Source: Gammaproteobacteria bacterium
GTDB lineage: Bacteria > Pseudomonadota > Gammaproteobacteria > Eutrophobiales > Eutrophobiaceae
Assembly: GCA_965221695.1 (NCBI GenBank)
Contig: OZ244905.1
Location: forward strand, 1,856,001 to 1,920,000
Length of the DNA stretch: 64,000 bases
Direction of reading: 5' to 3'
This document shows positions 21,942 through 64,000 of this stretch, one piece after another. Numbering within the stretch: position 1 is the stretch's first letter; each line of letters opens with the position of its first letter. The notes under the pieces are model-generated. The model saw only the letters and a program-made list of their open reading frames with translations. It searched no databases and had not been told where the DNA came from. Made by a program: the position numbers and the translations under genes.

Positions 21942-22083
21942 ACTATAAACAAGTCAGTGATAATATACAACACTTACACTACAACATGTTTGCCGGTAGT
22001 TTACAGCAGTCCGCACTGGCATACACAACGGGTTTCCTGTTTCTGTAGTAAACTATAAGCTGACGTATTGAGGAGAATACGAT

Positions 22084-25715: not shown

Positions 25716-26008
25716 CGAGAATCGTGATTATCCAGGTAAATATTACGCGCTTCGCCCTGTTGCTCCGACCATATGAATATCAGCCGCCATTTTTTGTTGA
25801 TGCGAACTGAATGTTTTCCAGCCAAATTACCTTGAAGCTTTTCAAAATGATTGCTTGGAGGAGAACGCAAATCCTGGTCACATGTTGCATCATCAATCAA
25901 TTGCAGTTTTCGGAAGAGACGGTCCTCAAGCTGCGCGGGTATTTTCTTGCTGATCCTATCCGCAAGATAAAACTCACGAAGCCACCTGTCCCGAAAACTG
26001 TGAATCAA
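25712..26008 (-). CDS. higB: HigB (RelE/ParE family) toxin
   Basis: IHSFRD, DLRSPPSNHFEKLQG, HSVRINKKWRLIF; GGGAG RBS plus TTG start; toxin-first gene order. Confidence 0.92.
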   Translation of the reverse strand: MIHSFRDRWLREFYLADRISKKIPAQLEDRLFRKLQLIDDATCDQDLRSPPSNHFEKLQGNLAGKHSVRINKKWRLIFIWSEQQGEARNIYLDNHDSR

Positions 26009-36150: not shown

Positions 36151-36153
36151 GTA

Positions 36154-36648
36154 TCAATAGAGTTCCAGTTCGGCTTCGATCTCTACCGGAATGCCGAACG
36201 GCAACTCAGCCATGCCGACTGCCGAGCGGGTGGCCAGACCTCGCTCCTTGCCAAAAACTTCCAGTATGGTCTTGGAAAAGCCGTTGATTACCGACACCTG
36301 GTTTTTGAAACCCGGCGCCGAGTTGACCATGCCCAAAACCTTAACCCAGCTTTTTACCTTGTTCAGTTCGCCCAATTCCCGCTGAATCGTGCCCAGCATG
36401 GATAGCGCGGTTTTGCGGGCCGCTTCAGCGCCCTGCTCAACAGTGAGGTCGGAACCCACTTTACCCAACGGCAGGGCAATGCTGCCATCGGTTTCCTGAG
36501 GGCCATGGCCGGAAACCAGCGCGCGCGTGCCTACGACCTTGATAAAGACTAGCGGGGCTTCTATATCCGGAGGTATCGCCAGCGGCGCCGGCAACACCAG
36601 TCCGAGTTCCTTTATGCGTTCATCAGGATTAATCGTGTCTTTGCTCAC
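36154..36648 (-). CDS. RidA/YjgF family protein
   Basis: ELGLVLP, VSGHGP, GKVG, KVLGMVNS, INGFS, RSAVGMAELP, PVEIE. Probable GTG start at 36648. Confidence 0.88.
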   Translation of the reverse strand: MSKDTINPDERIKELGLVLPAPLAIPPDIEAPLVFIKVVGTRALVSGHGPQETDGSIALPLGKVGSDLTVEQGAEAARKTALSMLGTIQRELGELNKVKSWVKVLGMVNSAPGFKNQVSVINGFSKTILEVFGKERGLATRSAVGMAELPFGIPVEIEAELELY

Positions 36649-36846
36649 AGTTTGTCTCACGGAGATGGCGAAGTAGATAATACTATTATGCCACCGCTCT
36701 GCTGCCGGGTTTATCATAATCGGCACAGCGTCTGTCCTGTAGCAAGCGCCATGCCGGGAAGGATAAGCCACCTGCAGCTAAGGATTGGAATTCTGGGCCG
36801 TGACAACAGATAATGATCGAATACTAATCACGGATCCAGAAACGAT

Positions 36847-38013
36847 ATGCCGGCCATATCCCGACAATCCCGACTTAACAACTGCCATAACATTGATGAT
36901 TTGCGCGAGTTGGCCAGAAAACGTCTGCCCAGGTTTATTTATGATTACCTTGAAGGCGGCGCCGATGACGAGTTTACCCTGTCCCGAAACCGTAACGTGT
37001 TTTCAGAGTTTTTCCTGCTGCAAAGAGTACTGGTGGATATCTCCGGGATAGATACCTCAACGACTGTGCTGGGCGAGCAGGTAGCCGCGCCGATCATCCT
37101 GACCTCAACCGGGGCCAACCGGCTGTATCATGCCGAGGGAGAACTGGCCGTTGCCAGGGCGGCAGCCAGGGAGAATATCATCCAGGTCCTGGCGTCGACC
37201 GCGATGGTCTCCTTCGATGAGGTGGCGGCAGATACGAACGGGCCGAAATGGTGCCAGATGTATGTCTTGAAAGATCGTGGATTCACCCGCGAGTTGACAG
37301 CGCAATGCCGCGCATTGGGTTACAAGGCCATGGTCCTGACCGCGGACTGCGCCGTTGCCGGCAACCGGGAACGGGATTATCGCAACCGCTTCACTTTGCC
37401 GCCAAGACCCACCTTGAAGGTATTGCGACAATTGTCTGCGCGCCCCGGCTGGTTGTGGGAGTACCTGCTGGCGCCAGCCTATAATTTTCCCAATTTTGCC
37501 GGCGCGCTGGATAATCATGACGACGTGTCATCTATCGTGCAATGGTTTGGCAACCAGTTGGACACGACTTTCACCTGGCATGACGCGGCCAGGCTGGCAG
37601 AAGACTGGAACGGGCCTTTTGTCGTCAAAGGCATTACCCATGTGGAAGATGCGAAGCTGGCCGCGCAAATCGGCGCCGCGGGCATCTCCTTATCCAGCCA
37701 CGGTGGCCGGCAACTGGACCACGCGCCCTCCCCGCTGGAAACGTTGCAAGAGGTCATGGACGCAGTAGGCGACAGGCTGGAAGTATTTATTGACAGTGGC
37801 TTCCGGCGCGGCACGGACATCATCAAAGCGCTTGCGCTGGGGGCGCGTGCCTGTCTCATCGGACGTCCTTACCTGTACGGTCTGGCTGCCGGCGGTGAAG
37901 CAGGTGTCGCACGGGCGCTGGATATCTTGCGCGCGGAACTGGAACGAGATATGGCTCTGATGGGCATCACGAGCATCGCAGGGATAACATCCGATTGTGT
38001 CCGCCGGCGTTAG
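36847..38013 (+). CDS. FMN-dependent alpha-hydroxy-acid dehydrogenase/oxidase (LldD/mandelate dehydrogenase family)
   Basis: YDYLEGGADDE, GNRERD, VKGI, SHGGRQLD, DSGFRRGTD, GRPYLYGL. Confidence 0.92.
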   Translation: MPAISRQSRLNNCHNIDDLRELARKRLPRFIYDYLEGGADDEFTLSRNRNVFSEFFLLQRVLVDISGIDTSTTVLGEQVAAPIILTSTGANRLYHAEGELAVARAAARENIIQVLASTAMVSFDEVAADTNGPKWCQMYVLKDRGFTRELTAQCRALGYKAMVLTADCAVAGNRERDYRNRFTLPPRPTLKVLRQLSARPGWLWEYLLAPAYNFPNFAGALDNHDDVSSIVQWFGNQLDTTFTWHDAARLAEDWNGPFVVKGITHVEDAKLAAQIGAAGISLSSHGGRQLDHAPSPLETLQEVMDAVGDRLEVFIDSGFRRGTDIIKALALGARACLIGRPYLYGLAAGGEAGVARALDILRAELERDMALMGITSIAGITSDCVRRR

Positions 38014-38028
38014 CCTGGAGAGACCTCT

Positions 38029-39363
38029 ATGCCCGTATTGAGCGAAAACTCTCCCATTATTTTCCAGGACAAACTGCCGGAAGCCGCCGATGTGGTGATC
38101 ATTGGCGGTGGCATAGCCGGCATTTGCGCTGCCTGGTTTCTGGTGAAAGACGGCGTTTCAGTACTGGTATGCGAAAAGGGCAGGATCGCCGGTGAACAAT
38201 CCAGCCGCAACTGGGGCTGGGTAAGGCAGATGGGCCGGGATGAAGCGGAACTGCCGATTATGATGGATTCCATCAATCTCTGGGAAGGTTTGGCGCAAGA
38301 AATCGGAGAAGATGTGGGTTTCCGGCGCGGTGGCATCCTGTTTCTGGCAGAAAATGAACAGGAACAGGAGGAATTCGAGCAATGGCTGGCGATCGCGAAG
38401 CAGCGCCAACTCGACAGCCGTCCACTCGGCCGCGGCGAACTGCAAAAACTGGTCGACGGCGGTGGCAACAGGTGGCACGGAGCCATCTATACCCCCAGTG
38501 ACGGGCGGGCGGAACCCTTCAAGGCTGTCCCGACTATCGCCAGAGCGGCGCAACGCGCCGGCTGCAGTATCATCGAAAATTGCGCTGTGAGAACCATCGA
38601 AACGCAAGCCGGCAGAACGAGCGCGGTAATAACGGAACTGGGCCGCGTGCGAGCCAATGCCGTTCTTTGCGCGGGTGGCGCCTGGTCCACCATGTTTCTG
38701 GGCAACCTGGGGGTTACTCTGCCGCAGCTCGTTGTGCGCGGCACAGTGGCGCGTACCGGGGCTGCTCCGGAGGTCTTTCCCGGCTGTGCTGCGTCCCACA
38801 GGTTTGCCTTCAGACGCAGGGAGGACGGCGGTTATACCCTGGCTTTGAGCGATTATCTTGAACATTTCCCCGGCGCCGACAGTATCAGGCGCCTGGTAAC
38901 GTTCTGGCCTGCCTTCAAGCAGATTCGAAAAGCCATCAAACTGCGTTTGGGCATGGATCTGTTTGCCAGGATGTTTCCGCAACGCAGGTGGCAGGCAGAT
39001 GAGATAACACCGTTTGAACGCATCCGGGTACTCAACCCGGAGCCATGTCCCTGGGCAGTCAGTGAATTGCGAAAACGCATGGTTGACCACTTGCCCGCAT
39101 TGGCCGAGGTAGGAATCGAGGAGTCATGGGCGGGCATGATCGAGGCAACACCTGATTTTGTGCCGGTACTGGATCAGGTACCCGGTTACCCGGGATTTTA
39201 CCTGGCTACCGGTTTCAGCGGCCATGGTTTCGGCATCGGTCCCGGCGCCGGGCGCATCATGGCGCGCCTGCTGCAAGGCAAACCGGCAGGATATGACCTT
39301 GGCCGTTTTCGTTTCACGCGCTTTAGCGACGGCAGCCCAATTATTCCCGGCCCTGCACTGTAA
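38029..39363 (+). CDS. FAD-dependent oxidoreductase, D-amino acid oxidase/deaminase family
   Basis: GGGIAG, GEQSSRNWGWVRQ, TPSDGRAEP, WAGMIEATPD, TGFSGHGFGIGP. Confidence 0.9.
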   Translation: MPVLSENSPIIFQDKLPEAADVVIIGGGIAGICAAWFLVKDGVSVLVCEKGRIAGEQSSRNWGWVRQMGRDEAELPIMMDSINLWEGLAQEIGEDVGFRRGGILFLAENEQEQEEFEQWLAIAKQRQLDSRPLGRGELQKLVDGGGNRWHGAIYTPSDGRAEPFKAVPTIARAAQRAGCSIIENCAVRTIETQAGRTSAVITELGRVRANAVLCAGGAWSTMFLGNLGVTLPQLVVRGTVARTGAAPEVFPGCAASHRFAFRRREDGGYTLALSDYLEHFPGADSIRRLVTFWPAFKQIRKAIKLRLGMDLFARMFPQRRWQADEITPFERIRVLNPEPCPWAVSELRKRMVDHLPALAEVGIEESWAGMIEATPDFVPVLDQVPGYPGFYLATGFSGHGFGIGPGAGRIMARLLQGKPAGYDLGRFRFTRFSDGSPIIPGPAL

Positions 39364-52095: not shown

Positions 52096-53244
52096 ATGGA
52101 CTTTTCACTCACAGAAGAACAACAACTGGCGTTGGATTCGTTCCGGCGCTTTGCCACTTCAGAACTTCGTCCAAGAATGGAGGCTTACCAGGACAGCTTT
52201 GTGCCCAAGGAGGAAATGCGGTCGCTGATAAAACAACTCCAGCCGTTTGGCGTCATCAACGGACCCGTGGCAGAGGAAGATGGCGGTTTCGCTATCGACA
52301 TGATCACATACGGCCTGTTGTTCGAGGAACTGGCCCGCGCGTCGGCTGACCTGGCAGTAGTCGCGTTGTTGCAGATGGAATGCGGCAAACTGCTCGCCGG
52401 CGTTCCCGGCGATCTGACCGCACCCTATTTACAAGCCATTGCTGATTGCGAAAAGTTCGGCTCCATTGGCATCAGCGAACCGGATGTAGGTTCGAATATT
52501 GCCGAGGTCAAGACCCGCGCCCGGCGCGAGGGCGATCATTTTGTGCTCAACGGAGAAAAACAGTGGATTTCCAACGGCCATTATTCGGATTTCAACATCT
52601 GCGTGGCACAGGTGGAGAATGATAAGGAAAAAGAAGGGCTGGCCCTGTTGCTGGTGGACCGGGAACACGGTTACACCAGCCGGAATATTCCCAAAATGAT
52701 CCTGAACAGCCAGTCCACCGCGCAGTTGTTCTTCAGCGATGTGCGTGTGCCGCAAGCAAACCTGCTGACCGCGCCGGGCAGAGGGCTGGGGAAGATGCTG
52801 GGTCTGCTGGAGGCCGGGCGTCCCCTGGTCGGGCTGATGGCGGTTGCCGTAGCGCAGGCAGCCATGGATGATTCCATGGCTTACGCGCTGGAACGGAAAC
52901 AACACGGCAAACTCATAGCAGAACACCAGTTGGTCCAGGCCATGATCGCAGAGATGGCGACGGACATCGATGCGGCCAGACTGTTATGTTACCGGGCGCT
53001 GGACCGGGTTGAAAAAGGTCTGGGCAGCGCTGTTGAAAGTTCCAAGGCGAAACTGTTTGCCACCAATATGGCTTTGCGTGTTGTGAACAAGGCCATGGAG
53101 ATCCACGGCGGCAACGGCCTGACCACGGAATTCCGGGTGGAAAAACTCTATCGCCTTGCGCGCATCTTCCCTATCACCGAAGGGACAGAGGAAATGCAGA
53201 AATTGATAATCGCCAGGGGTTTACTTGGCGTGCCAGCATTTTAA
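52096..53244 (+). CDS. acyl-CoA dehydrogenase
   Basis: ISEPDVGS, LNGEKQWISNG, ERKQHGK, HGGNG, ITEGTEEMQ. Confidence 0.93.
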   Translation: MDFSLTEEQQLALDSFRRFATSELRPRMEAYQDSFVPKEEMRSLIKQLQPFGVINGPVAEEDGGFAIDMITYGLLFEELARASADLAVVALLQMECGKLLAGVPGDLTAPYLQAIADCEKFGSIGISEPDVGSNIAEVKTRARREGDHFVLNGEKQWISNGHYSDFNICVAQVENDKEKEGLALLLVDREHGYTSRNIPKMILNSQSTAQLFFSDVRVPQANLLTAPGRGLGKMLGLLEAGRPLVGLMAVAVAQAAMDDSMAYALERKQHGKLIAEHQLVQAMIAEMATDIDAARLLCYRALDRVEKGLGSAVESSKAKLFATNMALRVVNKAMEIHGGNGLTTEFRVEKLYRLARIFPITEGTEEMQKLIIARGLLGVPAF

Positions 53245-53249
53245 TATAG

Positions 53250-53318
53250 GGAAGCTGTGAATAAGTCCGCACAGGACTTGTCAGGGCACGCAAGCGACGG
53301 TTTGTTCACCGGGAACCC
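53250..53318. repeat. diverged partial copy of the MITE-like element
   Basis: GGAAGCTGTGAATAAGTCCGCACAGGACTTGTCAGGGCACGCAA aligns with the reverse complement of the right end of 26134-26356 (GGAAGCTCTGAACAAGTCCATCCTGGACTTGTCAGAGCACGCAA); 5 bp after a stop codon. Confidence 0.7.
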
Positions 53319-53399
53319 GGTTACGAATGCGAGATATCTATCGTGTATTCCGGCTGACGCAGGAATGGGGGGCTTTGTCGTAACTGGGTCGCTCGCAGT

Positions 53400-53445
53400 A
53401 ATCCATGGGGTCTTGCTGCATTCGTTGACCCCATGGATTTTCTTT
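53400..53445 (+). terminator. intrinsic terminator-like hairpin inside a co-oriented gene run
   Basis: Perfect 13-bp stem AATCCATGGGGTC / GACCCCATGGATT, 14-nt loop, followed by TTCTTT; GGAGG RBS immediately downstream. Confidence 0.55.
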
Positions 53446-53457
53446 GTGGAGGAATGA

Positions 53458-54639
53458 GTGAGGAAACGAGGCATTGCCATCATCGGCGTGAGCGAAGTTC
53501 CGACACGGCGCATGCCGGAACGGGCCCGCTGGGATATCCTGCTGGATGTCTGTATCGGCGCGGTGCGCGATGCGGGCATAGACAAGGACAATATCAATGC
53601 TGTGATCTCCCCCAACCCCATGGCGCAACCCCAGATCACGCTGGAAATGGCGCTGGGAAGAATCCCGGAAGTGTTGGGCTTCAAAGGCTGCCGCGACATT
53701 TGCGTGACCAACGCCGGCGGCACCTCGACCACCAACTGTATCCGTATAGCCGAACAGTTGATTGACTCCGGTCAGGCCGATTTCGTGCTTATCCCCCATA
53801 CCACGGTGCAATCGGACATTCCGGCGCAGGATCTGATTAATTTTTTTGCCACGGCGCCGTTGGACAAGGAATGGGAATACCCTTGGGGGGTGTCATTCAA
53901 CGGGTCCATGGGTCTGATCACCCAGCGCTATATGCACGAAACCGGCGCAACCGCTGAGGACATGGCGGCAGTGACCGTAGGGCTCAGGGCCTGGGCAGCC
54001 ATGGACCCCAATTCCATCTTTTACAAAAAACCCGTGACCCTCGAGGATGTCCTAAGTTCCCGAATGATCAGTACACCATTGCATGCCCGGGAATGTAACC
54101 TGCTGGCGGACGGCGGCGGGGCGCTGGTATTGACTTCCCATGACATCGCCAAAGAACTTGGCGGCAAGGCTGCCTTCAAACTGGGTCATGGCACGCGCTT
54201 TATGAGCGCGACACCGGTACTGCGCAAAGATGTTTTCCATCGCCGCGCCTACCAGGAAACGAGCAGCGATGCATTGGAGCAGGCGGGTTTATCGATTGGT
54301 GATATGGACCTTCGGCAGATTTACGGCGCCTATCCTTACACACAATGTTCTGCCCTGGAAGCATATGGTGTCTGCGCCATCGGCGACGGCGCAAAACTGT
54401 GGGCCGAAGGCCGTTGCGGACCGGGTGGTGACCTGCCCTGCACCACCATGGGTGACGCCACCGGCCGCGGCCATGTCGGGTCAGGCGTGAGTATGGCCTT
54501 CTATATCGATACGGCCAGGCAGCTATTCGACGAGGCAGGTGAACGCCAGGTTGCCGATTGCGCGCATGCCATTCTGACGACTTCAGGCGGCTCGGTAATG
54601 AACGCGTGTACAACGGTATTCGGCAGAGAAACGCGATGA
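53458..54639 (+). CDS. atypical thiolase-fold protein (SCP2-thiolase/Ltp2-like) lacking the nucleophilic Cys
   Basis: IAIIGVSE, RYMHETGAT, EDVLSSRMISTPL, ADGGGA, GDLPCTTMG, GRGH; NAGGTS where the Cys motif is expected; GGAGG plus GTG start. Confidence 0.82.
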   Translation: MRKRGIAIIGVSEVPTRRMPERARWDILLDVCIGAVRDAGIDKDNINAVISPNPMAQPQITLEMALGRIPEVLGFKGCRDICVTNAGGTSTTNCIRIAEQLIDSGQADFVLIPHTTVQSDIPAQDLINFFATAPLDKEWEYPWGVSFNGSMGLITQRYMHETGATAEDMAAVTVGLRAWAAMDPNSIFYKKPVTLEDVLSSRMISTPLHARECNLLADGGGALVLTSHDIAKELGGKAAFKLGHGTRFMSATPVLRKDVFHRRAYQETSSDALEQAGLSIGDMDLRQIYGAYPYTQCSALEAYGVCAIGDGAKLWAEGRCGPGGDLPCTTMGDATGRGHVGSGVSMAFYIDTARQLFDEAGERQVADCAHAILTTSGGSVMNACTTVFGRETR

Positions 54640-55046
54640 TTCAACGACGGCGCCCGCTGCCCGAGATACAACCCTTTTCCAAGCCGTTCTGGGATGGGAC
54701 CCGCGCCCATAAGCTGCTGATCCAGCATTGCTGCGACTGCAACTCCCTCATCTTTTACCCGCGCCGGGAATGTCCGGAGTGCTGGTCAACCAACCTGGAC
54801 TGGAAGGAAAGCAGCGGCAAGGCTACCCTGTACTCCTATTCCATTACCTACGAAGGTGTGGAAGAGAAATTTGCCGATGATCTGCCAATCATCCTGGCCT
54901 GGATAGACTTGGAAGAAGGGATCAGGATGACGACCAACATCATTGGTTGCGAACCGGATGATGTGTATATCGGCATGGAGTTGGAAGTTGCGTTCCGCCC
55001 GTTGACCGATGAGGTCATCCTGCCATTCTTTCAGCCCGTTCGCTGA
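54636..55046 (+). CDS. DUF35 zinc-ribbon/OB-fold protein
   Basis: PFWDG, CCDC...YPRRECPEC, GKATLYSYS, LEEGIRMTTNI, PFFQP; ATGA overlap with the thiolase. Confidence 0.9.
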   Translation: MIQRRRPLPEIQPFSKPFWDGTRAHKLLIQHCCDCNSLIFYPRRECPECWSTNLDWKESSGKATLYSYSITYEGVEEKFADDLPIILAWIDLEEGIRMTTNIIGCEPDDVYIGMELEVAFRPLTDEVILPFFQPVR

Positions 55047-55065
55047 TGAATTGCCTTTTGTTAAA

Positions 55066-55150
55066 GGAAGCTCTGAACAAGTCCATCCAGGACTTGTCAG
55101 TGGCGACACATCCCGGCGCCGTGCGAACCTCTGACTTAATTCAGAGGCTC
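55066..55150. mobile_element. internally deleted 85-bp copy of the MITE-like element
   Basis: Consists of the two ends of the 26134-26356 element in opposite orientation, joined without the interior; preceded by TAAA. Confidence 0.72.
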
Positions 55151-55200
55151 TATAACTGTTTGGGGGCAGAGACCCCCGCTTACAACATGCGGGGGCATGC

Positions 55201-55785
55201 TTGAAATCCGCCCCTGAAAAACCGGAACAAAACAAGACTGGCTGGGGCAAATGGGGAACCTGGGAAGAGACTGAATCTTACCTGGGCAAGGTCATCGGCG
55301 TCGCGCAAGGCGCGGACGCCGTGGAACAGGGGACTATCCGCCGCTGGATGGAGTCCAAGGAGTTTGATTGTCCCATTCACATTGATGACGCCGCCGCGCA
55401 GGAGGTGGGCTACGAAGGTGTCATTGCGCCAGACAATATGATCTTTACCTACGGTCTTCCGGCCTACTGGCAGAACGGCGACCCCTACGAGCAACCCAAC
55501 GCTGAGCCCCGACAGATACCGATACCGGTTATTTTCGATGTTCCAGCGCCGTGCAACCTGAGCTTCGCCTCAAATATCGATGTGGAATATCTTGCGCCGA
55601 TGCTCGTGGGTGACCGGATTACCCGCACCAGCCGGCTGGTCAGCATCAACCGTAAAACCCTGCGGGTCGGCGACGGCGCTTTTTTACGCCAGGAAGACAC
55701 CTACACCAACCAGCGAGATGAGATAGTGGCCATTGTCACCCTGGATATCTTTAGGTTCGTCGCGCCGGACGATAAGCAAGACTGA
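55201..55785 (+). CDS. MaoC/hotdog-fold dehydratase subunit
   Basis: VEQGTIRRW, PIHIDDAAA, GVIAP, YLAPMLVGDRI, YTNQRDEIVA; TTG start uncertain. Confidence 0.8.
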   Translation: MKSAPEKPEQNKTGWGKWGTWEETESYLGKVIGVAQGADAVEQGTIRRWMESKEFDCPIHIDDAAAQEVGYEGVIAPDNMIFTYGLPAYWQNGDPYEQPNAEPRQIPIPVIFDVPAPCNLSFASNIDVEYLAPMLVGDRITRTSRLVSINRKTLRVGDGAFLRQEDTYTNQRDEIVAIVTLDIFRFVAPDDKQD

Positions 55786-55786
55786 A

Positions 55787-56218
55787 ATGGTCGACTGGTC
55801 CAAGCAGATAACTGTAGACGATGTAGTCACTGGCGCTGAGATTCCTGAAATCTCCATACCGATTACCCTGCAACGTCTGGTGATGGAAGCCGGCTCCAAC
55901 CGCGATTTTTCCCTGATCCACCACGACAAGGACGTCGCGCAGTCAACCGGCGCCGCCGACGCGTACATGAATACGTTTTTTATCCTGGGCCTGTTTGAAA
56001 GAATGCTGCGTGAATGGATGGGGGTGAGAGGCAGGCTGAAAAAGATCACGTCACTGCAAATGAAATCCTTCAATATAGTCGGCGATACCGTTTACTGTCG
56101 GGGCAAGGTAGCCGGCAAACAGGAAGACGGGACCGTCAACCTGGACATCTGGATGGAGAATGAAGAGAGGGTAACAGTGACCGCAACCGCTGCCGTCTCC
56201 CTCCCGCTGCGGGCATGA
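55787..56218 (+). CDS. MaoC/hotdog-fold dehydratase, probable catalytic subunit
   Basis: Hydratase-2-like motif GSNRDFSLIHHD, VGDTVYCRGKV. Start moved to ATG 55787. Confidence 0.82.
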   Translation: MVDWSKQITVDDVVTGAEIPEISIPITLQRLVMEAGSNRDFSLIHHDKDVAQSTGAADAYMNTFFILGLFERMLREWMGVRGRLKKITSLQMKSFNIVGDTVYCRGKVAGKQEDGTVNLDIWMENEERVTVTATAAVSLPLRA

Positions 56219-56531: not shown

Positions 56532-56957
56532 ATGAATTATACTTATGCTGTGATTCTCACTGAGGATCCGGATGACGGTGGATACGTTGTTACCTGCCGC
56601 GATCTGCCGGAGGCGATCACCCAGGGCGAGACGGTTACGGAAGCGCTTGCTGAGGCGGCTGTTGCGCTGGACGAAGCCTTGTGTGGCCGTATCAATCGCG
56701 GCAAGGATATTCCTGAGCCCTCGGCTGAACAGGCCGGAGAACGGTTGGTTCCGGTACCGGTGACCACTGCGCTAAAGGCGGCGGCTTACACCAGGTTTCG
56801 CGAATCCGGCCAGACCAAGGTGGCAATTGCCGAAGCCCTGGACCTCAAAGAAAGCGAAGTGCGCCGCATCCTTGACCCACGTCATGGCACCAAGGCCGCC
56901 ACCCTGGAACGGTTTATCCGTTCGCTGGGGGGTAACGTGCTAATCAGTGCGAGTTAG
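56532..56957 (+). CDS. hicB: HicB family antitoxin with C-terminal HTH
   Basis: GGYVVTCRDLPEAITQGET, IPEPS, EVRRILDPRHGTK. Confidence 0.92.
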   Translation: MNYTYAVILTEDPDDGGYVVTCRDLPEAITQGETVTEALAEAAVALDEALCGRINRGKDIPEPSAEQAGERLVPVPVTTALKAAAYTRFRESGQTKVAIAEALDLKESEVRRILDPRHGTKAATLERFIRSLGGNVLISAS

Positions 56958-58148
56958 TCAACCCTTAACCAGTTCCCCACCAATGATAAGTTGTCGAATC
57001 TGTGCGGTGCCGCCGCCGATTTCCAGGAGTTTGCCGCAGCGGTAGAGTTGGTTAATCTCCGTCTCGCGCATGAAGCCCATGCCGCCGTGTACCTGCACGC
57101 CGTTGTCCAGCACGCGCATACAAGCCCGGCCGGTATGCAGGAACACCGCAGCGCAGCGCTTTTGCAGTTCGCCACGGCTGACACCCTCTTTGTCTTCAGC
57201 ATGCAGTTGGATTGCGCTCTGGTAGGTAAGAGAACGCATGGTTTCGACATCGGTGTACATATCGGCCAGCATCGCCTGCACCAACTGGAAATTGCCGATG
57301 GGCTGGCCGAACTGCTCGCGCGTCCGCGCATATTCGATGGACAGGTCCAGCGCCCGTTGCGCGACACCGAGGCAATAGAATCCCAATACCAGGCGTTCCA
57401 CGTTCAGACCGCTCATGATCACCGCAGCGCCGTTATTCTCGCCACCGATGAGATTTTCCGCCGGTGTCTCACAATCGTTGAAAATCAGCTCACCGGTGGG
57501 GCTGCCGCGCCAGCCCATCTTGTCCAGTTTCTGCGCGCTGCTGAAACCGGAGAAATCTCTCTCGACAATAAACGCAGAGATGCCACGATGCCCTTGCGCC
57601 GGGTCGGTCCTGGCATAGACCACCGCAATATCGGCTACCGGCGCGTTGGAAATAAACATCTTGCGGCCGTTGAGAACAAATTTATCGCCTTGTCTGACTG
57701 CGGTCATCTTCATGCTGCCCAGCGCATCCGACCCGGCGCCCGGCTCGGTCATACCCATCGCGCCAATCGCGGTTCCATCGCAGAAGCGCGGCAGATATTT
57801 CCGCTTTTGCTCTGCGCTGCCATTGCGCACAATATTGTGGACGCAGATATTTTCGCTGGACAGCCAGGCCGCGCATAAACCATGGCTCCAGTAGGCCATG
57901 GCCTCAGCGGCGACGCATTGCGCGAGGAAATCCAGCCCCTGCCCGCCGAATTCTTCCGGAACCGTAAGCCCAAGCAACCCGACCTCAGCAAGCGAGCGAA
58001 AACGTTGTTCGGGGAACCAATCCTCCCGGTCCATCCTGTCGTTCAGCGGGTGCAGTTCCTCGCGGCTGAAGCGATACACCGAATCGTAAACCTGCTGGTA
58101 TTCGTCCGCGAAGCCGTAGGAGGAGAGTGTATTACGATGAGTGTTCAT
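56958..58148 (-). CDS. acyl-CoA dehydrogenase (isovaleryl-CoA dehydrogenase-like)
   Basis: MTEPGAGSDA, LDKMGWRGSPTGELIF, MSGLNVERLVL, REQFGQPIG, LLEIGGGT. Confidence 0.9.
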   Translation of the reverse strand: MNTHRNTLSSYGFADEYQQVYDSVYRFSREELHPLNDRMDREDWFPEQRFRSLAEVGLLGLTVPEEFGGQGLDFLAQCVAAEAMAYWSHGLCAAWLSSENICVHNIVRNGSAEQKRKYLPRFCDGTAIGAMGMTEPGAGSDALGSMKMTAVRQGDKFVLNGRKMFISNAPVADIAVVYARTDPAQGHRGISAFIVERDFSGFSSAQKLDKMGWRGSPTGELIFNDCETPAENLIGGENNGAAVIMSGLNVERLVLGFYCLGVAQRALDLSIEYARTREQFGQPIGNFQLVQAMLADMYTDVETMRSLTYQSAIQLHAEDKEGVSRGELQKRCAAVFLHTGRACMRVLDNGVQVHGGMGFMRETEINQLYRCGKLLEIGGGTAQIRQLIIGGELVKG

Positions 58149-59344
58149 TTACTGGATTCCTGCGTTCCCGGGGAATGGGTATGGGGGATTACACCGGCAT
58201 CGCCCAGTTCGCTGATGCGTTCCTCACTGAAGCCCCAGTCCTGCAATATCTCCACGGTGTGCTGGCCCGTTTCGGGCGGCGGCGACTGTATCGCCGCTGG
58301 GGTCCGGCTGAACCGGGGCGCGGGCGCCGGCTGGCTTATTCCATCAATGCTGACATAGGCGTTCCTGGCCAGCGCGTGAGGATGTTGTGCCGCTTCCGTC
58401 AGGCTCAGCGCCGGCGCGAAGCAGGCATCGGAACCTTCGAAGATTTCACACCATTCATCCCGTGTTTTTGTCAGGAATATCTGCTGAAACCGAGCGGCAA
58501 ATTCCGGCCAGCGTTCCCGGTTGTGCTGCTGCGCGCGCAGGTCCGGGTCGCTGATTTTAAGCCGGTCCAGTAGCTCACTGTAGAACCGTTCTTCCAGCGG
58601 CGCAATGACTATGTATTGATCATCTTTTGTCCGGTAGGTGTTCACAAAATGGGCGCCGCCATCGAGGATATTGCCGCCGCGTTGTTCTTTCCAGATTCCA
58701 GCCGCCAGCAGCCCGTAAAACACCGTCATCATGGACGCTGCGCCATCGACCATCGCCGCATCCACGACCTGCCCCTTGCCTGATTTTGCCGCCTCCAGCA
58801 TGGCCGCCAACAGCCCCATCGCGAGATACAACGCGCCGCCGCCGAAATCGCCAATCAGGTTCAGCGGATAGGTCGGCGCTTCATCCTTTTTGCCGATACA
58901 GGCCAGCACGCCGGCGATGCCGATGTAGTTGGGATCGTGCCCGGCACGCTCGGCCAGCGGGCCCTCCTGGCCCCAGCCGGTCATGCGGCCGTAAACCAGT
59001 CTCTCGTTGCGCCGCATACACTCCTGCGGTCCCAGTCCCAGGCGTTCCATGACCCCGGGTCGGAACCCCTCGAACAGCGCATCGGCGCCGGCGCAGAGTT
59101 GAAGCACAACTTCCCTGCCCTGCGCTTGTTTTAAATCTATCGCAATAGAGCGCCGGCTCCGGTTCATCAGTCCGTACTTGCCGGGCATGGAAACGCCCAG
59201 TTCCACCTTGCTCAGGCGTTCGACTCGCACAATTTCCGCGCCCATGTCGGCCAGCAGCATGCCGGTCAACTGTGTCGGCCCGACACCGGCAATCTCGATC
59301 AGCTTATATCCGGATAAAGGCCCTTGGGCTTTGCTCGCAGGCAT
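58145..59344 (-). CDS. CaiB/BaiF class III CoA-transferase family protein, alpha-methylacyl-CoA racemase-like
   Basis: EGFRPGVMERLGLGP, GRMTGWGQ, AGHDPNY, IGDFGGG, QPAPAPRFSRT. Confidence 0.9.
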   Translation of the reverse strand: MPASKAQGPLSGYKLIEIAGVGPTQLTGMLLADMGAEIVRVERLSKVELGVSMPGKYGLMNRSRRSIAIDLKQAQGREVVLQLCAGADALFEGFRPGVMERLGLGPQECMRRNERLVYGRMTGWGQEGPLAERAGHDPNYIGIAGVLACIGKKDEAPTYPLNLIGDFGGGALYLAMGLLAAMLEAAKSGKGQVVDAAMVDGAASMMTVFYGLLAAGIWKEQRGGNILDGGAHFVNTYRTKDDQYIVIAPLEERFYSELLDRLKISDPDLRAQQHNRERWPEFAARFQQIFLTKTRDEWCEIFEGSDACFAPALSLTEAAQHPHALARNAYVSIDGISQPAPAPRFSRTPAAIQSPPPETGQHTVEILQDWGFSEERISELGDAGVIPHTHSPGTQESSK

Positions 59345-59352: not shown

Positions 59353-59817
59353 CTACCAGTAGCGTAACAGGAAGGTGGCAACGGCAACCGGCTCATCCCG
59401 GCCGGCGACGTTGAAAGTGACATCATAATGCACGGTGATGGCCTCCTCTTTTTTCACCACCCTGGCGATGCGAGTGGTGGCGGTCAGGCGCGCGCCGGCC
59501 ACGATCGGCGCCAGCAGGCGGAACCGGTCCGCGCCGTAAAACAGCGCGTTGATCCTGCCATACTCGAATGATTGGAAGAACAGGGTGGGAAACAGCGCGG
59601 GCAACATGAACAAAGGCGCAATCACGCCACCGAACCGCTCGTTGCAACGATCCTCATCCCAGTGCACCCATTCCCGGTTATCGATGGCCGCGCAAAACGC
59701 CTGGATTCTGTCCTTATCGACCTCGAAGGGCGAGGAGGTTGCGATAACCTCTCCCTCACGATCCATAAACCACTGAATATCATTGATAATCGTTTTTTTC
59801 GGCATGATTGTTGTCAT
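59353..59817 (-). CDS. MaoC family dehydratase (NodN-like)
   Basis: IQAFCAAIDNREWVHWD, FGGVIAP, YGADRFRLLAP. Confidence 0.82.
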   Translation of the reverse strand: MTTIMPKKTIINDIQWFMDREGEVIATSSPFEVDKDRIQAFCAAIDNREWVHWDEDRCNERFGGVIAPLFMLPALFPTLFFQSFEYGRINALFYGADRFRLLAPIVAGARLTATTRIARVVKKEEAITVHYDVTFNVAGRDEPVAVATFLLRYW

Positions 59818-59924: not shown

Positions 59925-60902
59925 ATGGCCAAGACTGCACAACTCAAGTCAAAAAACACCCGCCACAGCGAACAGGAACAGAACGCAATCGAGATGGCGA
60001 TACTGCAACGCATAGAAGCCGGTGAGATCTTCGAGGACATGGATGACCTCTCGCCCAAGTTCCGGGCCATATTGAAAATGACCGCCGACCTGGCCGCGGT
60101 GAGCGAAGTATCGGTGCTGACCTGGGCGTATACGGCTTACCGCACCGCGCCCGACATCGGCGCCAAGATTGCGGTATGCGCGACGATTCTTGACGAAGTG
60201 GGTCACGCCTACCACCAGGGCCTGCTGGCGGAACGTTTCGGGGTCGATATGCACCAGCGGGCCTTTGAAGATGATGTCGAAACCATCTGGACCTGGCCGA
60301 TCATGGAGGTGCCGCTACGGAATTATATCGAGTTCGTGGTCATGCAGGCGCTGCTGGATCGGGCCGGCCTGCACTGGACCAAGGACATCGAACTGCATTG
60401 CAGTTTTGCCCCTTACCGCAGGACCTTGAGAAAGGTCAATTTTGAGGAGGGGTTCCACATGCGCCATGGGGCTTTCTGGACCGAGTACTACTGGAACCAC
60501 TCGGAGGAGACGCGGGAATGGGTACAAAAAGCGGTGGACTGGCTGTTCCCGTTCGGGGTGATGTGGTTCGGCAAACCCGACGATCTCCGCAACCGGCCGG
60601 ACATGCTGAAATATCGCGTGCGCGGCTGGGGCAATGATTTCATGCGTGATAAATGGCTGCAGTCCGCCAGCGCTTTTTGTGACAAGCTGGGCATAAAGAT
60701 CCCGGCAAAATTCGACAAGGACAACAACAAATGGATCCTGGATATGCCGTACCCGATGTTGTACGACGCGGAGAACTATCAATGGTCCTGGGAACAGTGC
60801 TCCCAGAAGGAATACTGGTCCCACTCCCGCCGGGGCGGACCGATGCGTCCGGGCGCCTATGATCGGTTGCGCCGCGAGGAATGGGGGGAAGCCCTGTGGT
60901 AG
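59925..60902 (+). CDS. PaaA-like diiron ring-epoxidase catalytic subunit (divergent)
   Basis: Diiron ligand pattern SE...DEVGH...LD...EEGFH, plus AP, MWFG and C-terminal GGP landmarks of PaaA. Start placed at ATG 59925. Confidence 0.85.
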   Translation: MAKTAQLKSKNTRHSEQEQNAIEMAILQRIEAGEIFEDMDDLSPKFRAILKMTADLAAVSEVSVLTWAYTAYRTAPDIGAKIAVCATILDEVGHAYHQGLLAERFGVDMHQRAFEDDVETIWTWPIMEVPLRNYIEFVVMQALLDRAGLHWTKDIELHCSFAPYRRTLRKVNFEEGFHMRHGAFWTEYYWNHSEETREWVQKAVDWLFPFGVMWFGKPDDLRNRPDMLKYRVRGWGNDFMRDKWLQSASAFCDKLGIKIPAKFDKDNNKWILDMPYPMLYDAENYQWSWEQCSQKEYWSHSRRGGPMRPGAYDRLRREEWGEALW

Positions 60903-61213
60903 CCACCACAGAAGCGGTGCGCGCCGCCGCGGGTCGGGTACTCGACCCCCATATCAACGTCAACCTCAATGAGATGGGGATGGTCAGCGATATTTCCATC
61001 GGGAAACACGGGGATGTGGAAGTGTCGATAGTCTTTCCCTGCCTGGGTTGCCCCGCGTATACCATGTTGAAGGAACAGGTGCGCCAGCAGGTATCCAGAG
61101 TGGACGGCGTCAAATCCGTTCGGGTGAAAGCCGACTGGGAAGGTCGCTGGGACCGGTCGCAGATGTCAGCGCGCGCCAGGCAGTACGCGCAACAACACGG
61201 TTATCGTATCTGA
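60896..61213 (+). CDS. DUF59/PaaD N-terminal-like metal-sulfur cluster assembly protein
   Basis: VLDPHINVNLNEMGMV, PCLGCP, WDRSQMS; start GTG 60896 or ATG 60881. Confidence 0.82.
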   Translation: MVATTEAVRAAAGRVLDPHINVNLNEMGMVSDISIGKHGDVEVSIVFPCLGCPAYTMLKEQVRQQVSRVDGVKSVRVKADWEGRWDRSQMSARARQYAQQHGYRI

Positions 61214-61228
61214 CCAGGCGCTTTAATC

Positions 61229-61468
61229 ATGACCCAAGGCGCCGAACAAACCGGCAACAACGTGACGTTTGAAGTATTCGGACGCGATCAACTGGAACGG
61301 CCGCTGTCGCATATTGGCAGTATCCAGGCGCCGAATCAGGACCTCGCAGTAGCCCGCGCCCGTTTCATGTATTCCGAGCGCCAATGGGTCGAGCTGTGTG
61401 TCGCGCCCTCTGACTCATTCGTTGCCTGCCTGTCACCAGTCAGGCGCGGCAGCATCGGCATGGCCTGA
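61229..61468 (+). CDS. PaaB-like small subunit
   Basis: FEVFGR, HIGSIQAP, LAVARARFMY, LCVAP match the PaaB pattern. Confidence 0.78.
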   Translation: MTQGAEQTGNNVTFEVFGRDQLERPLSHIGSIQAPNQDLAVARARFMYSERQWVELCVAPSDSFVACLSPVRRGSIGMA

Positions 61469-61680
61469 TGCGCATGACAAACCCGGCAAACCGCCAGAAT
61501 GGCAACAACGGCGCCCCAACGGAGCAACCTGAGCGTAAAGTCTTGTGTCCATGGTGTGAATCGCCAAACACCCGGTTGGTCAGTCTTTACGGTCCCAGCG
61601 TCGCAGAGATGTTGTACCAATGCGAAGACTGCCAGGACAGCTTCGGCTGGTTGAAGTGGGAGCAGCGACTGCCAGAATAA
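61468..61680 (+). CDS. stand-alone PaaD C-terminal-like zinc ribbon
   Basis: CPWCESPNTRLVSLYG...YQCEDCQDSFGWLK. Confidence 0.78.
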   Translation: MRMTNPANRQNGNNGAPTEQPERKVLCPWCESPNTRLVSLYGPSVAEMLYQCEDCQDSFGWLKWEQRLPE

Positions 61681-61694
61681 CACGGCAACTGACA

Positions 61695-62576
61695 ATGCAA
61701 CTGAACGACAAGATAAAGCTCCTGTTGCAGGCGGAACTGTTATGCATCGCCGACAGCAACTGGATCCTGGGACACTGGTACATCAACTGCATGCTGAACG
61801 GCCGCGAGCTGACCGATTTTACGTCCATGGCCGGTATCGCCGAAGAGAAGCTGGGGCATACGCGGGCATTGTTCAGGTTTCTTGAAGAATATTACGATCT
61901 GCCCGAGTTCCAGCTTGAATTCGGCCGTGACGCTGATCAGGTCCACAGCCCGGAATTTCTCGACCTGCCCCCGGAAAACTGGGCCGACTTCATCACTACC
62001 CTGTTCCTGGCCGACCTCGCGTTATGGCGTTTTTCCGCGACTTTCATGGACGGTACTTTCACTCCCATTGCCAACCTCACCAGGCGCTTCGGCGAAGAAT
62101 GCTATTTTCACCAACTGTGTATCGACGGCTGGATGAAAAATTTTACCGCAGCCGAAAAAACCGAAGCGGGTCAATCTATGGTGAAACGCTTGCCCCAGGT
62201 ACTGGCCTGGTTCGGCTCCGAACCGCAATCCTCTGCCGATGTATTGGTTGAACAGGGTTTGCGAACGGAATCCACCTGGTCTGCCAGGTCGAAGTTGCTG
62301 GATGACATCACCGCAAAACTGGGCCCGCACACAGGGATATCAAGCGCACAGATCGACAGCATCGCCGCCCAAGCCTTGCCGGAAAACCGTGACCCCCTGC
62401 GCCGGCGCCAACAGGGCAGTAAAATCCCGGACAGGTTATGGGAGAGCGTGAACCCGACCAGTGAAGCGGCACAAATCGCCCGTCGCCCCCTGGCCGTCAG
62501 TGTGAGGGATAATATAGACCTGTTTCAGACAACAAAGAAAGACGACACCGAACCTGTGTTTGAAGCCAAGGGTTAA
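61695..62576 (+). CDS. PaaC-like structural subunit
   Basis: IADSNWILGH, EEKLGHTR, NWADFI, EECYFH; ExxH ligands degenerate. Start moved to ATG 61695. Confidence 0.8.
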   Translation: MQLNDKIKLLLQAELLCIADSNWILGHWYINCMLNGRELTDFTSMAGIAEEKLGHTRALFRFLEEYYDLPEFQLEFGRDADQVHSPEFLDLPPENWADFITTLFLADLALWRFSATFMDGTFTPIANLTRRFGEECYFHQLCIDGWMKNFTAAEKTEAGQSMVKRLPQVLAWFGSEPQSSADVLVEQGLRTESTWSARSKLLDDITAKLGPHTGISSAQIDSIAAQALPENRDPLRRRQQGSKIPDRLWESVNPTSEAAQIARRPLAVSVRDNIDLFQTTKKDDTEPVFEAKG

Positions 62577-62641
62577 ATTAAAAGGAGGCTGCCTGAAAAG
62601 CGGAAGTTCGGGCATCCCGCCTGCAAGTTCAAACACGATGT

Positions 62642-62956
62642 CTAATTGTCCGCGATGCGCAGAGTAATTCCATCCAACTCTTCAGTAACCCGTACCTGGC
62701 AGGCAAGGCGGCTGTTGCCGGCGCGCCCTGGTAATGCGCACAGCATGGCCTCCTCCAAATCCTCAATCGCCGGTATTCTGTCCAACCAGTCTGCTTCGAT
62801 ATAGGAATGGCAGGTGCCGCAGGCCGCGGCGCCGCCGCATTCCGCCAGCATCCCTTTGAGTTGGTGGTTGAAAGCTCCCTCCATCAGGGAATAACCGGCT
62901 TCAACCTCTATCTCTCGCCGGTTATTATCAGCGTCGATGTAAATTACAACAGGCAT
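62642..62956 (-). CDS. 2Fe-2S ferredoxin (putidaredoxin/adrenodoxin type)
   Basis: GYSLMEGA, ECGGAAACGTCH, SRLACQ; start at 62956 or 62992. Confidence 0.92.
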   Translation of the reverse strand: MPVVIYIDADNNRREIEVEAGYSLMEGAFNHQLKGMLAECGGAAACGTCHSYIEADWLDRIPAIEDLEEAMLCALPGRAGNSRLACQVRVTEELDGITLRIADN

Positions 62957-63080: not shown

Positions 63081-64000
63081 ATGAACACAGAACATATATA
63101 TGAAGCCGGCCTGGGCAAAAACCAGGCCAATTATACGCCTTTGTCCCCGCTGACCTTCATTGAGCGCGCGGCTTCTGTTTATCCTGATTATACGTCCGTC
63201 GTGCATGGCGACCTGCGCTTCACCTGGGCCGAGACCTATACCCGCTGCCGTCGCCTGGCATCGGCCCTGCGCAACAGGGGCATAGGCAAAAACGATACGG
63301 TGTCGGTCATGCTGCCGAACATACCGGCCATGTACGAAGCCCATTTCGGCGTGGGCATGGCCGGCGCGGTGCTGAATGCACTCAACTACCGGCTGGACGC
63401 GGACGCGATCGCCTTCATGCTGGACCATGGCGAGGCCAGGGTATTGATTACCGACCGGGAGTTCTCCACCGTCATCAAGGAAGCCATCGCCAGAACAAAG
63501 TGCGACCTGATCGTGATCGATGTCGACGACCCCGCTTACGAGGGTGGCGAACTGCTCGGTGAAACCGACTACGAGTCCTTCCTGCAGGAGGGCAACCCGG
63601 AGTTTGACTGGAACCTGCCGGCGGACGAATGGGATGCGATCGCATTGTGTTACACCTCCGGCACCACGGGCAATCCCAAGGGGGTGGTGACCCATCATCG
63701 CGGCGCCTACCTGAACGCCATTTCCAACCTCATGGTGTGGGGGATGACCGGCCACCCCGTTTACCTGTGGACCCTGCCCATGTTCCACTGCAACGGCTGG
63801 TGTTTTCCCTGGGGCATCGCGGCCACGGCCGGCATCAACATCTGTCTCCGGTCAGTCCGGGCCGATGCCATTTTCTCCCTCATCAAGCAAGAACAAGTCG
63901 ATCACCTGTGCGGCGCCCCTATCGTGCTCAACCTGCTCGGCAACGCGCCCGCCGAATTGAAACAGGGAATAAACCACCAGGTGAAGGTGATGACCGCAGC
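63081..64000 (+). CDS. acyl-CoA synthetase (AMP-forming), 3' truncated by window edge
   Basis: Translated by hand: MNTEHIYEAGLGKNQANYTPLSPLTFIERAASVYP...YTSGTTGNPKGVVTHHRGAYL...TLPMFHCNGW. Absent from the ORF track because it has no stop in the window. Confidence 0.92.
   Translation, partial: MNTEHIYEAGLGKNQANYTPLSPLTFIERAASVYPDYTSVVHGDLRFTWAETYTRCRRLASALRNRGIGKNDTVSVMLPNIPAMYEAHFGVGMAGAVLNALNYRLDADAIAFMLDHGEARVLITDREFSTVIKEAIARTKCDLIVIDVDDPAYEGGELLGETDYESFLQEGNPEFDWNLPADEWDAIALCYTSGTTGNPKGVVTHHRGAYLNAISNLMVWGMTGHPVYLWTLPMFHCNGWCFPWGIAATAGINICLRSVRADAIFSLIKQEQVDHLCGAPIVLNLLGNAPAELKQGINHQVKVMTA

Follow-up and report, generated by a model that had tools for sequence, protein, structure and literature searches.

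The closest characterised counterparts of the operon described here are two diiron enzyme systems that act on coenzyme A (CoA) thioesters, the phenylacetyl-CoA epoxidase PaaABC(D)E of Escherichia coli and Pseudomonas and the benzoyl-CoA 2,3-epoxidase BoxAB. According to a review (PMC4498308), the irons of E. coli PaaA are held by Glu42, Glu72, His75, Asp126, Glu155 and His158, Phe108 orients the substrate, and Lys68 forms with Glu49, Glu72 and Asp126 a “lysine bridge” for which a role in electron transfer from PaaE has been suggested.

The stretch of DNA analysed (hereafter the window) comprises 64,000 nucleotides of a gammaproteobacterial genome (assembly GCA_965221695.1, contig OZ244905.1, positions 1,856,001 to 1,920,000). 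Close to its end lies an operon of five genes related to paaABCD, facing a convergent ferredoxin gene. It is not a displaced paa operon but a candidate for a third diiron oxygenase system for CoA thioesters, one without a reductase. We put at roughly 50% the probability that it encodes a PaaABC-type, ferredoxin-dependent monooxygenase whose CoA thioester substrate is neither phenylacetyl-CoA nor benzoyl-CoA and whose product would be passed to a variant hot-dog protein and an Ltp2-type module. The components, called A, DUF59, B, Zn and C below, and the ferredoxin are as follows.

59925–60902, plus strand: A, PaaA-like catalytic diiron subunit, 325 amino acids; PF05138 112.9 bits, TIGR02156 71.8 bits.
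60896–61213, plus strand: DUF59 protein, equivalent to the N-terminal half of PaaD, 105 amino acids from a GTG start (alternative ATG at 60881); PF01883 53.5 bits.
61229–61468, plus strand: B, PaaB-like small subunit, 79 amino acids; PF06243 34.2 bits.
61468–61680, plus strand: Zn, PaaD-type zinc-ribbon protein, equivalent to the C-terminal half of PaaD, 70 amino acids; PF23451 51.2 bits.
61695–62576, plus strand: C, PaaC-like structural subunit, 293 amino acids; PF05138 48.6 bits.
62642–62956, minus strand: [2Fe-2S] ferredoxin, convergent to the operon, 104 amino acids, in a reading frame open back to 62992; PF00111 34.9 bits.

Gene content and active site

The open reading frames and Pfam domains agree with the initial annotation, made from the sequence alone, which had described five tightly coupled genes and a convergent ferredoxin. 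Read from the sequence, A and DUF59 overlap by 7 nt (22 nt with the upstream ATG), DUF59 and B are 15 nt apart, B and Zn overlap by 1 nt, and 14 nt separate Zn from C. All five operon proteins and the ferredoxin pass their Pfam gathering scores, and with the PF05138 threshold at 28.5 bits both A and C belong to the PaaA_PaaC superfamily. Among species-representative genomes, 109 stretches encode a relative, and the best 80 of these, designated L006–L085, are the loci to which all locus counts refer. Gene order could be followed in the 74 loci with at least 2.7 kb past the start of A: it is A-DUF59-B-Zn-C in 68, A-DUF59-B-C-Zn in four and A-DUF59-B-C in two, so that the arrangement, for which the initial annotation had proposed a synteny search, is not due to chance.

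The operon shares with PaaABC(D)E the A, B, C and D components, the set of six iron ligands, the fold of A and a C subunit that is a degenerate paralogue of A. It differs from the canonical order A-B-C-D-E, in the splitting of PaaD with a CxxC pair in the DUF59 half, in lacking PaaE and in the replacement of Lys68, Glu49 and Phe108; moreover, it is unlinked to paaK, paaG and paaZ, occurs also in genomes without paaK and paaZ, and its A subunit is only 21–24% identical to E. coli PaaA.

In an alignment of 68 sequences, the ligand positions of PaaA correspond to E61, E91, H94, D145, E175 and H178 of A, so that all six residues of the diiron pattern noticed initially can be mapped, and the set is kept in 23 of 23 family members, except for E175 (22 of 23). 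Three other positions are altered. The bridge lysine, K68, is T87 in the window protein and Thr, Ser or Ala in every one of the 23 family sequences, versus Lys in 14 of 15 canonical PaaA; E49 is replaced by A68 (Ala in 18 of 23, versus Glu in 10 of 15); and F108 is replaced by M127, with Met in 16 of the 23 and Phe in none, versus Phe in 13 of the 15. As judged from this alignment, the putative pocket and electron-path residues of A differ at these positions from those of canonical PaaA, as against the conserved pocket that the initial annotation would have taken as the mark of a phenylacetyl-CoA enzyme.

An AlphaFold2 model of A (mean pLDDT 88.6) finds its best fold match in E. coli PaaA, on which the predicted structure superposes over 311 columns with template modelling (TM) scores of 0.79/0.85 at 21% identity. 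When this model was used in Foldseek, the top eight matches were all PaaA chains and PaaC chains came next. BoxAB is likewise a diiron enzyme with a CoA thioester substrate, presumed in the case of the operon, and a separate electron-transfer protein, but BoxB is a remote fold match only (TMq 0.50–0.53, 12–13% identity). The PaaC-like protein retains three of the six ligand positions (H55, D107 and H139), which makes it a structural partner, as PaaC is. In the favoured reading the operon specifies a soluble, multicomponent diiron monooxygenase of PaaABC(D) type, in which A would be the catalytic subunit with the complete diiron site, C the structural subunit with a degenerate site and B a small bridging subunit.

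The proposed split of PaaD is confirmed by the 146-position PaaD model TIGR02159, of which the DUF59 gene covers positions 3–87 and the zinc-ribbon gene positions 98–144; when aligned with canonical PaaD, from E. coli and from the genome itself, each protein likewise falls on one half. Since they match successive halves, PaaD is split here, with the paaB-like gene lying between the parts, and the maturation factor would be supplied as two proteins. The four cysteines of the zinc ribbon are invariant in 58 of 58 sequences. A CxxC pair in the DUF59 protein is likewise invariant (79 of 79 family sequences), at a place where only one cysteine is found in E. coli PaaD and in the canonical copy encoded elsewhere in the genome.

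The PaaB-like protein scores 26.7 bits on the PaaB model TIGR02157 and 33.9 bits on TIGR04031, both under cut-off. The better-scoring family bears the NCBI name “Htur_1727 family rSAM-partnered candidate RiPP”, and its members may in reality be PaaB-like oxygenase subunits. AntHIJKL, a PaaABCDE-like oxygenase of antimycin biosynthesis, illustrates the use of such enzymes outside catabolism, and the slight preference of B for TIGR04031 could be taken in favour of a comparable biosynthetic oxygenase whose substrate would be an aromatic acid, either free or bound to a carrier protein. Such a function is very improbable: no gene for a carrier protein, non-ribosomal peptide synthetase, polyketide synthase or radical S-adenosylmethionine enzyme was seen among the scanned window open reading frames or in the conserved neighbourhood, and the context of transporters, ligases, acyl-CoA dehydrogenases and thiolases is catabolic.

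The rearranged, paaE-less order described in the initial annotation is not confined to this locus. Operons on Thermus, Agrobacterium and Haloterrigena plasmids, annotated but, as far as the searches show, uncharacterised, share the A-DUF59-B-C order without PaaE and encode proteins 30–37% identical to A. Their neighbours are two crotonases and an aldehyde dehydrogenase in Thermus, a CoA-transferase, a ligase, a PaaI thioesterase and a coniferyl-aldehyde dehydrogenase in Agrobacterium, and a stand-alone 2Fe-2S protein, a crotonase and UbiD decarboxylases in Haloterrigena; the present operon has a different set of partners (hot-dog protein, Ltp2-like aldolase, BisC). The split PaaD is likewise already represented in NCBIfam by the haloarchaeal paa models NF041867–NF041869, which include a DUF59-only “PaaD” and a stand-alone zinc ribbon named “PaaE”; on these models the window proteins score 50 versus 180 bits (DUF59) and 33 versus 100 bits (zinc ribbon). 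The architecture itself is thus already in databases.

Separation from the paa and box systems

NCBIfam TIGR02156–TIGR02160 are the equivalog models for PaaABCDE, and none of their cut-offs is reached by the window proteins: A scores 71.8 bits against 280, B 26.7 against 85.45, C 31.7 against 133.35, and the DUF59 and zinc-ribbon proteins 39.5 and 35.3 against 108.15. The BoxB model TIGR03225 gives no match on A at E ≤ 1e-2 (0.01). The genome, one 3.54-Mb contig, carries the standard enzymes elsewhere, as the initial annotation had suggested checking. Canonical PaaA (552 bits), PaaB, PaaC, PaaD, PaaE (472 bits) and PaaX, each above cut-off, are encoded at 865–870 kb, about 1 Mb from the operon; PaaK (732 bits) and PaaZ (996 bits) lie at 892–896 kb with an adjoining PaaI homologue, and BoxB (837 bits) is found far from the window. 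With E. coli PaaA as tblastn query, the canonical copy is 71% identical and the window A 24%. Adjoining the canonical paaA is a gene for a 733-aa reductive-dehalogenase-family protein (TIGR02486, 191 bits; C1:870114–872315, minus strand; locus L086, 8118–10316).

The absence of paaE, paaZ and paaK from the window, reported initially, is upheld: the 51 window open reading frames scanned for domains include none with a PaaE-type domain, and with E. coli PaaE, PaaK and PaaZ as queries tblastn gave no match within the window or adjoining it. Nor do paaE, paaG or paaZ appear just beyond its end, where the gene of an acyl-CoA ligase simply continues. One crotonase gene, at 22084–22887, is 37 kb upstream of the operon.

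A tree of 68 chosen sequences (23 family members, 20 non-canonical, 15 canonical and 10 PaaC-type proteins) was built with MAFFT and FastTree and rooted on PaaC; partial matches from the HMMER search of representative proteins are omitted from it. Family members form one clade (SH-like support 0.996) and canonical PaaA another (1.0), in keeping with the separate subfamily postulated at the outset, and the family joins the other non-canonical proteins with support of 0.936. On this tree and alignment, the subfamily is distinct and vertically coherent. Canonical PaaA is also present in three of five other carrier genomes. In the remaining two, a Halioglobus metagenome-assembled genome and an Arenicella chromosome, neither PaaK (E ≤ 1e-30) nor PaaZ (E ≤ 1e-50) was found. 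The operon is independent of the paa pathway.

These observations bear on the possibility that the operon encodes a second, redundant phenylacetyl-CoA 1,2-epoxidase, for example one fed by ferredoxin under other conditions, that supplies the genome's own PaaG/PaaZ pathway. Such a role would suit the PaaA/B/C/D homology with its full ligand set, the presence of downstream paa genes in this genome and the names PaaA or PaaI that databases give to relatives. It is nevertheless improbable in view of scores far under every equivalog cut-off tested, the separate clade, a Phe108 position that never keeps Phe and holds Met in 16 of the 23 family sequences, the occurrence of the operon in both tested genomes without canonical PaaA, PaaK and PaaZ, and conserved neighbours that are not paa genes. 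The standard paa genes and boxB elsewhere in the genome, together with carriers devoid of paaK and paaZ, argue against a displaced paa operon; and since a paaE-type reductase is missing while the genome already has the standard enzymes, the oxygenase probably acts on another CoA-bound compound.

The 80 loci derive from uncultured Gammaproteobacteria, sponge-associated ones among them, Halieaceae (Luminiphilus, Halioglobus and isolate HTCC2080), Woeseiaceae, Arenicella, Burkholderiales, Rhizobiales and Sulfobacillus; HTCC2080 and Thalassotalea sp. HSM 43 are cultured carriers. Within the genus of the window's organism the operon is present in 12 of 22 other species, and it was found in none of 18 sampled genomes outside the genus, so that it behaves as an accessory module. 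A word-based search returned 71 relatives under generic names only, and a HMMER search of 1.84 billion representative proteins gave 240 matches at E ≤ 1e-3, 13 of them at E ≤ 1e-30. The protein atlas yielded generic PaaC/PaaI clusters only, and 10 non-canonical relatives all bear generic cluster names. No description of this clade came up in the literature search, which covered listings, abstracts and passages and included passages of a 2026 paa survey (PMC13186573).

Electron supply and conserved partner genes

The ferredoxin was initially assigned to the putidaredoxin type, and the sequence agrees: it is a Fer2-domain protein with a C-x5-C-x2-C-x36-C motif (C40, C46, C49 and C86) that is invariant in 24 of 24 aligned sequences, a spacing that we take to be that of adrenodoxin/putidaredoxin (vertebrate-type) ferredoxins. 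Its best NCBIfam match is fdx_isc, at 41 bits and under cut-off. In the two clades closest to the window the gene lies within 1.2 kb of C at 11 of 11 and 17 of 18 loci, and at L036 and L037 it is co-directional and immediately follows C. No PaaE-type FAD_binding_6/NAD_binding_1 domain was found in the 51 window open reading frames scanned, and PaaE is missing from the gene families that commonly neighbour the 80 loci. The replacement of the bridge lysine (K68) fits an electron entry other than that of PaaE, and a stand-alone 2Fe-2S protein also accompanies the Haloterrigena A-DUF59-B-C operon. A role of the ferredoxin as electron donor is plausible at the level of the clade.

A conserved protein of about 365 amino acids, encoded near the operon in 13 loci (L037, 13008–14099, and 12 more), was considered as a reductase and rejected, being a multi-pass membrane protein with no Pfam match; it may be a transporter of the operon's substrate. 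One FNR-like gene, 5 kb upstream at L048, is not conserved.

Further genes of the window recur around the operon in other genomes.

59353–59817, minus strand: divergent single hot-dog MaoC-family protein; PF13452, PF01575.
58145–59344, minus strand: family III CoA-transferase; PF02515 276 bits.
56958–58148, minus strand: acyl-CoA dehydrogenase; Pfam acyl-CoA dehydrogenase domains.
52096–56218, plus strand: igr-like module of an acyl-CoA dehydrogenase, an Ltp2/Sal-like thiolase-fold protein, a DUF35 protein and two MaoC proteins; Pfam, with Protein Data Bank (PDB) matches to thiolase 4u4e, Ltp2 6ok1 and ChsH1/ChsH2.
63081–64000, plus strand, cut by the window end: AMP-forming acyl-CoA synthetase; PF00501, NF006020 506.6 bits on the 306-aa fragment, 545 amino acids in the genome.
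16013–18364, plus strand: BisC-family S/N-oxide reductase; TIGR00509 969 bits versus a cut-off of 1017.
32659–38013: indolepyruvate-ferredoxin-oxidoreductase family protein (minus strand, 1163 amino acids), YjgF-like protein (minus strand) and flavin mononucleotide (FMN) 2-hydroxyacid dehydrogenase (plus strand); NF009589 1578 bits, PF14588, PF01070.

The most constant of these partners is the hot-dog protein. When the loci are sorted into four identity classes, a member of its family occurs in 12 of 12, 21 of 21, 33 of 41 and 2 of 6, or 68 of 80 in all, many loci being incomplete. Its best PDB match is Mycobacterium tuberculosis Rv0130 and its second the MaoC domain of Comamonas testosteroni Shy, a hydratase of bile-acid and steroid side chains. 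According to PMC11321319, catalysis by MaoC hydratases depends on a His/Asp dyad in which the Asp precedes the His by five residues. In 67 family sequences (from loci L006–L083) the Asp position holds Asn in 44 and Gln in 23, with H52, D54, C42 and W50 invariant. An invariant His with Asn or Gln in place of Asp indicates an altered catalytic dyad, and the family may represent a new hot-dog activity tied to the oxygenase. A PaaZ-type hydrolase was rejected as an identity for this protein: BLASTP against E. coli PaaZ gave E 0.63, and profile comparison recovered general MaoC homology only, at 86.6% probability.

The neighbouring gene first read as a racemase is a family III CoA-transferase by Pfam; its relatives occur in 25 of the 80 loci, with 57–61% identity in the mapped ones. 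Acyl-CoA dehydrogenases are present in 31 loci, and orthologs of the one at 56958–58148 (59–64% identity) adjoin the hot-dog gene in the second clade. The igr-like module directly follows C in Halieaceae and lies upstream of the operon in the second clade. Its Ltp2-like protein, here called Ltp53, has GGTS where HMMER aligns the GGSS of “thiolase” 4u4e; the family occurs in 26 of 80 loci, and in full-length loci its orthologs are 74–79% identical, whereas A, at 54–61% in Halieaceae-type loci, is less conserved. AraC regulators accompany 37 of the 80 loci, and TetR-family as well as AraC-family regulators adjoin the operon at many of them. The ortholog of the window's acyl-CoA synthetase is confined to the closest clade; at L006, the locus of a 99%-identical relative, a CoA-binding protein and then a pyridoxal phosphate (PLP) enzyme of the Cys/Met type follow downstream of the ligase.

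Orthologs of the BisC-type reductase (55–66% identity) occur within 10 kb of A in 28 of the 80 loci, placed between the Ltp module and the acyl-CoA dehydrogenase gene in the second clade. Near A are also found relatives of the indolepyruvate-ferredoxin-oxidoreductase (8 loci), the YjgF-like protein (14) and the FMN 2-hydroxyacid dehydrogenase (20); in the window these three genes and BisC lie 22–44 kb upstream of the operon. A DAO-type flavoprotein is also encoded beside the FMN dehydrogenase set, within 32659–39363. That the arrangement of partners is shuffled between clades argues for functional linkage, though the loci are related and hence not independent events.

The same set of an acyl-CoA dehydrogenase, two MaoC proteins, a DUF35 protein and a thiolase-fold protein is known from the igr operon (ChsE/ChsH1-ChsH2/Ltp2) and from Shy-Sal, and the hot-dog partner resembles the MaoC domain of Shy. 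Identity to these systems is low (E-values of 1e-8 to 1e-27), and the catalytic Asp of Shy is Asn or Gln in the partner. No mention of a diiron oxygenase was found in the steroid side-chain literature retrieved, including the accessible portion of PMC11321319.

Several features of the window lie outside this set. An aldehyde:ferredoxin oxidoreductase (AFOR_N, AFOR_C) is encoded at 4651–6474 on the plus strand, in a genome whose Paa and Box epoxidases depend on O2. A Type III restriction-modification pair (8015–14244, plus strand; a 1033-aa DNA methylase and a 1043-aa ResIII helicase) occupies an island of low guanine-cytosine (GC) content, with 44–49% GC versus about 56% in most of the remaining window. 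Toxin-antitoxin genes comprise a YoeB/YefM pair (21382–21973, minus strand) and a HigB/HTH pair (25407–26008, minus strand), and a lone HicB-like antitoxin (56532–56957, plus strand) is inserted between the Ltp module and the acyl-CoA dehydrogenase gene.

Candidate pathway and its biological meaning

For the proposed third oxygenase system the following sequence of steps may be envisaged. O2 and two electrons would be used to epoxidise or hydroxylate a CoA thioester, the electrons being delivered by a free [2Fe-2S] ferredoxin, which in this clade has its gene beside the operon and which would replace the fused PaaE reductase. The oxygenated product would pass to the hot-dog protein with its His and Asn/Gln dyad and then to the acyl-CoA dehydrogenase, MaoC hydratase and Ltp2-DUF35 aldolase set, which would split off a short acyl-CoA. 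A methionine/methylthiopropionyl-CoA route, hinted at by the BisC-type reductase, the 2-oxoacid oxidoreductase and the Cys/Met PLP enzyme of L006, was dropped as the principal interpretation because it leaves the oxygenase and the aldolase without a role.

Several points weigh against the scheme. The grounds for presuming a CoA thioester are homology to PaaA and the neighbouring CoA-handling genes. The ferredoxin gene is within 1.2 kb of C at 0 of 34 and 0 of 6 loci of two more distant clades, and no ferredoxin reductase is linked to the operon at the loci examined; the donor role proposed in the initial annotation thus stands as plausible for the two closest clades (28 of 29 loci), and the adjacency of the ferredoxin gene does not extend to the other clades (0 of 40 loci). 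The hot-dog partner is without the canonical hydratase Asp. AMP-forming ligases near the operon, found in 50 of 80 loci, are not one orthologue between clades, and the two that were examined resemble FadD8 and long-chain fatty-acyl-CoA synthetase, not aryl-CoA ligases. Finally, the tree support figures come from a single FastTree run on selected sequences, and many loci derive from related metagenome-assembled genomes, so that counts are not independent.

The initial annotation, partly supported as a whole, had named an aryl or heteroaryl substrate, and this part of it is not borne out, as the adjacent ligases resemble fatty-acid CoA ligases. An epoxidase for the ring of an aryl- or heteroaryl-acyl-CoA (such as 4-hydroxyphenylacetyl-CoA, indoleacetyl-CoA or 2-arylpropionyl-CoA), followed by hydrolytic ring opening or side-chain removal, is nevertheless possible, short of an even chance. 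In the ibuprofen-CoA pathway, thiolase-like and DUF35 pairs are responsible for side-chain removal. Both relatives that have been characterised, PaaA and BoxB, form epoxides on the aromatic ring of a CoA ester (PMC4498308; PDB titles). Relatives of the indolepyruvate-ferredoxin-oxidoreductase and the FMN 2-hydroxyacid dehydrogenase, at 8 and 20 of 80 loci, point the same way, as do the crotonases, aldehyde dehydrogenase, PaaI thioesterase, coniferyl-aldehyde dehydrogenase and UbiD decarboxylases near the distant A-DUF59-B-C operons. In the alpha- and betaproteobacterial loci L052, L081, L082 and L083 an aldehyde dehydrogenase gene stands beside the hot-dog gene, in two of them with a second MaoC protein, and these MaoC–aldehyde dehydrogenase sets recall the domain pair of PaaZ. 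On the other side, the conserved core holds no aromatic-specific enzyme, there is no linked PaaG-like isomerase, and the igr-like module is familiar chiefly in connection with steroid side chains.

That last association leads to a further candidate function, an enzyme that would hydroxylate or desaturate a branched aliphatic, isoprenoid or steroid-side-chain acyl-CoA, operating with the igr-like set, an SCP-x-type thiolase and the CoA-transferase. In one conceivable version of this pathway an alpha-oxidation-like cycle would combine 2-hydroxylation, the FMN dehydrogenase and a 2-oxoacid:ferredoxin oxidoreductase that also re-reduces the ferredoxin. The Ltp53/DUF35/MaoC module is tightly linked and, as noted above, better conserved than A itself; Shy is the second-best structural match of the hot-dog partner; the ligases are nearest to FadD8 and long-chain acyl-CoA synthetase, the latter being the best PDB match of the window ligase; and both the FMN dehydrogenase and the 2-oxoacid:ferredoxin oxidoreductase are linked to the operon. 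We know of no PaaA-family enzyme that acts on a non-aromatic substrate, and none turned up in the literature search; the proposal is less likely than not. For the substrate of the proposed oxygenase we lean slightly, and tentatively, to a CoA ester that bears a ring (aryl- or alicyclic-alkanoyl) and loses its side chain; somewhat less likely is an acyl-CoA of the branched aliphatic or steroid-side-chain kind.

PaaA and PaaC are treated as genomic markers of phenylacetate degradation, for example in PMC13186573. The clade described here shows that PF05138 operons exist apart from the phenylacetate pathway, and the automatically assigned names “PaaA” and “PaaI” consequently overcall phenylacetate catabolism in marine and sponge-associated bacteria. 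More speculatively, and with the odds against it, the operon may belong to a third class of aerobic “hybrid” CoA-dependent catabolism beside Paa and Box, defined by a ferredoxin-fed oxygenase, a new hot-dog enzyme and an Ltp2-type aldolase, in which the linked 2-oxoacid:ferredoxin oxidoreductase may deliver both acyl-CoA and reduced ferredoxin; such a pathway would be common in coastal Halieaceae, Woeseiaceae and sponge-associated Gammaproteobacteria and might serve an abundant marine substrate not yet assigned to a route. The family is small, well defined and represented in cultured strains, and therefore amenable to direct experiment. Should its substrate be found, the family would provide a third diiron oxygenase system for CoA thioesters, set apart by its source of electrons, and would bring with it new hot-dog chemistry and a route of carbon turnover in abundant coastal bacteria.

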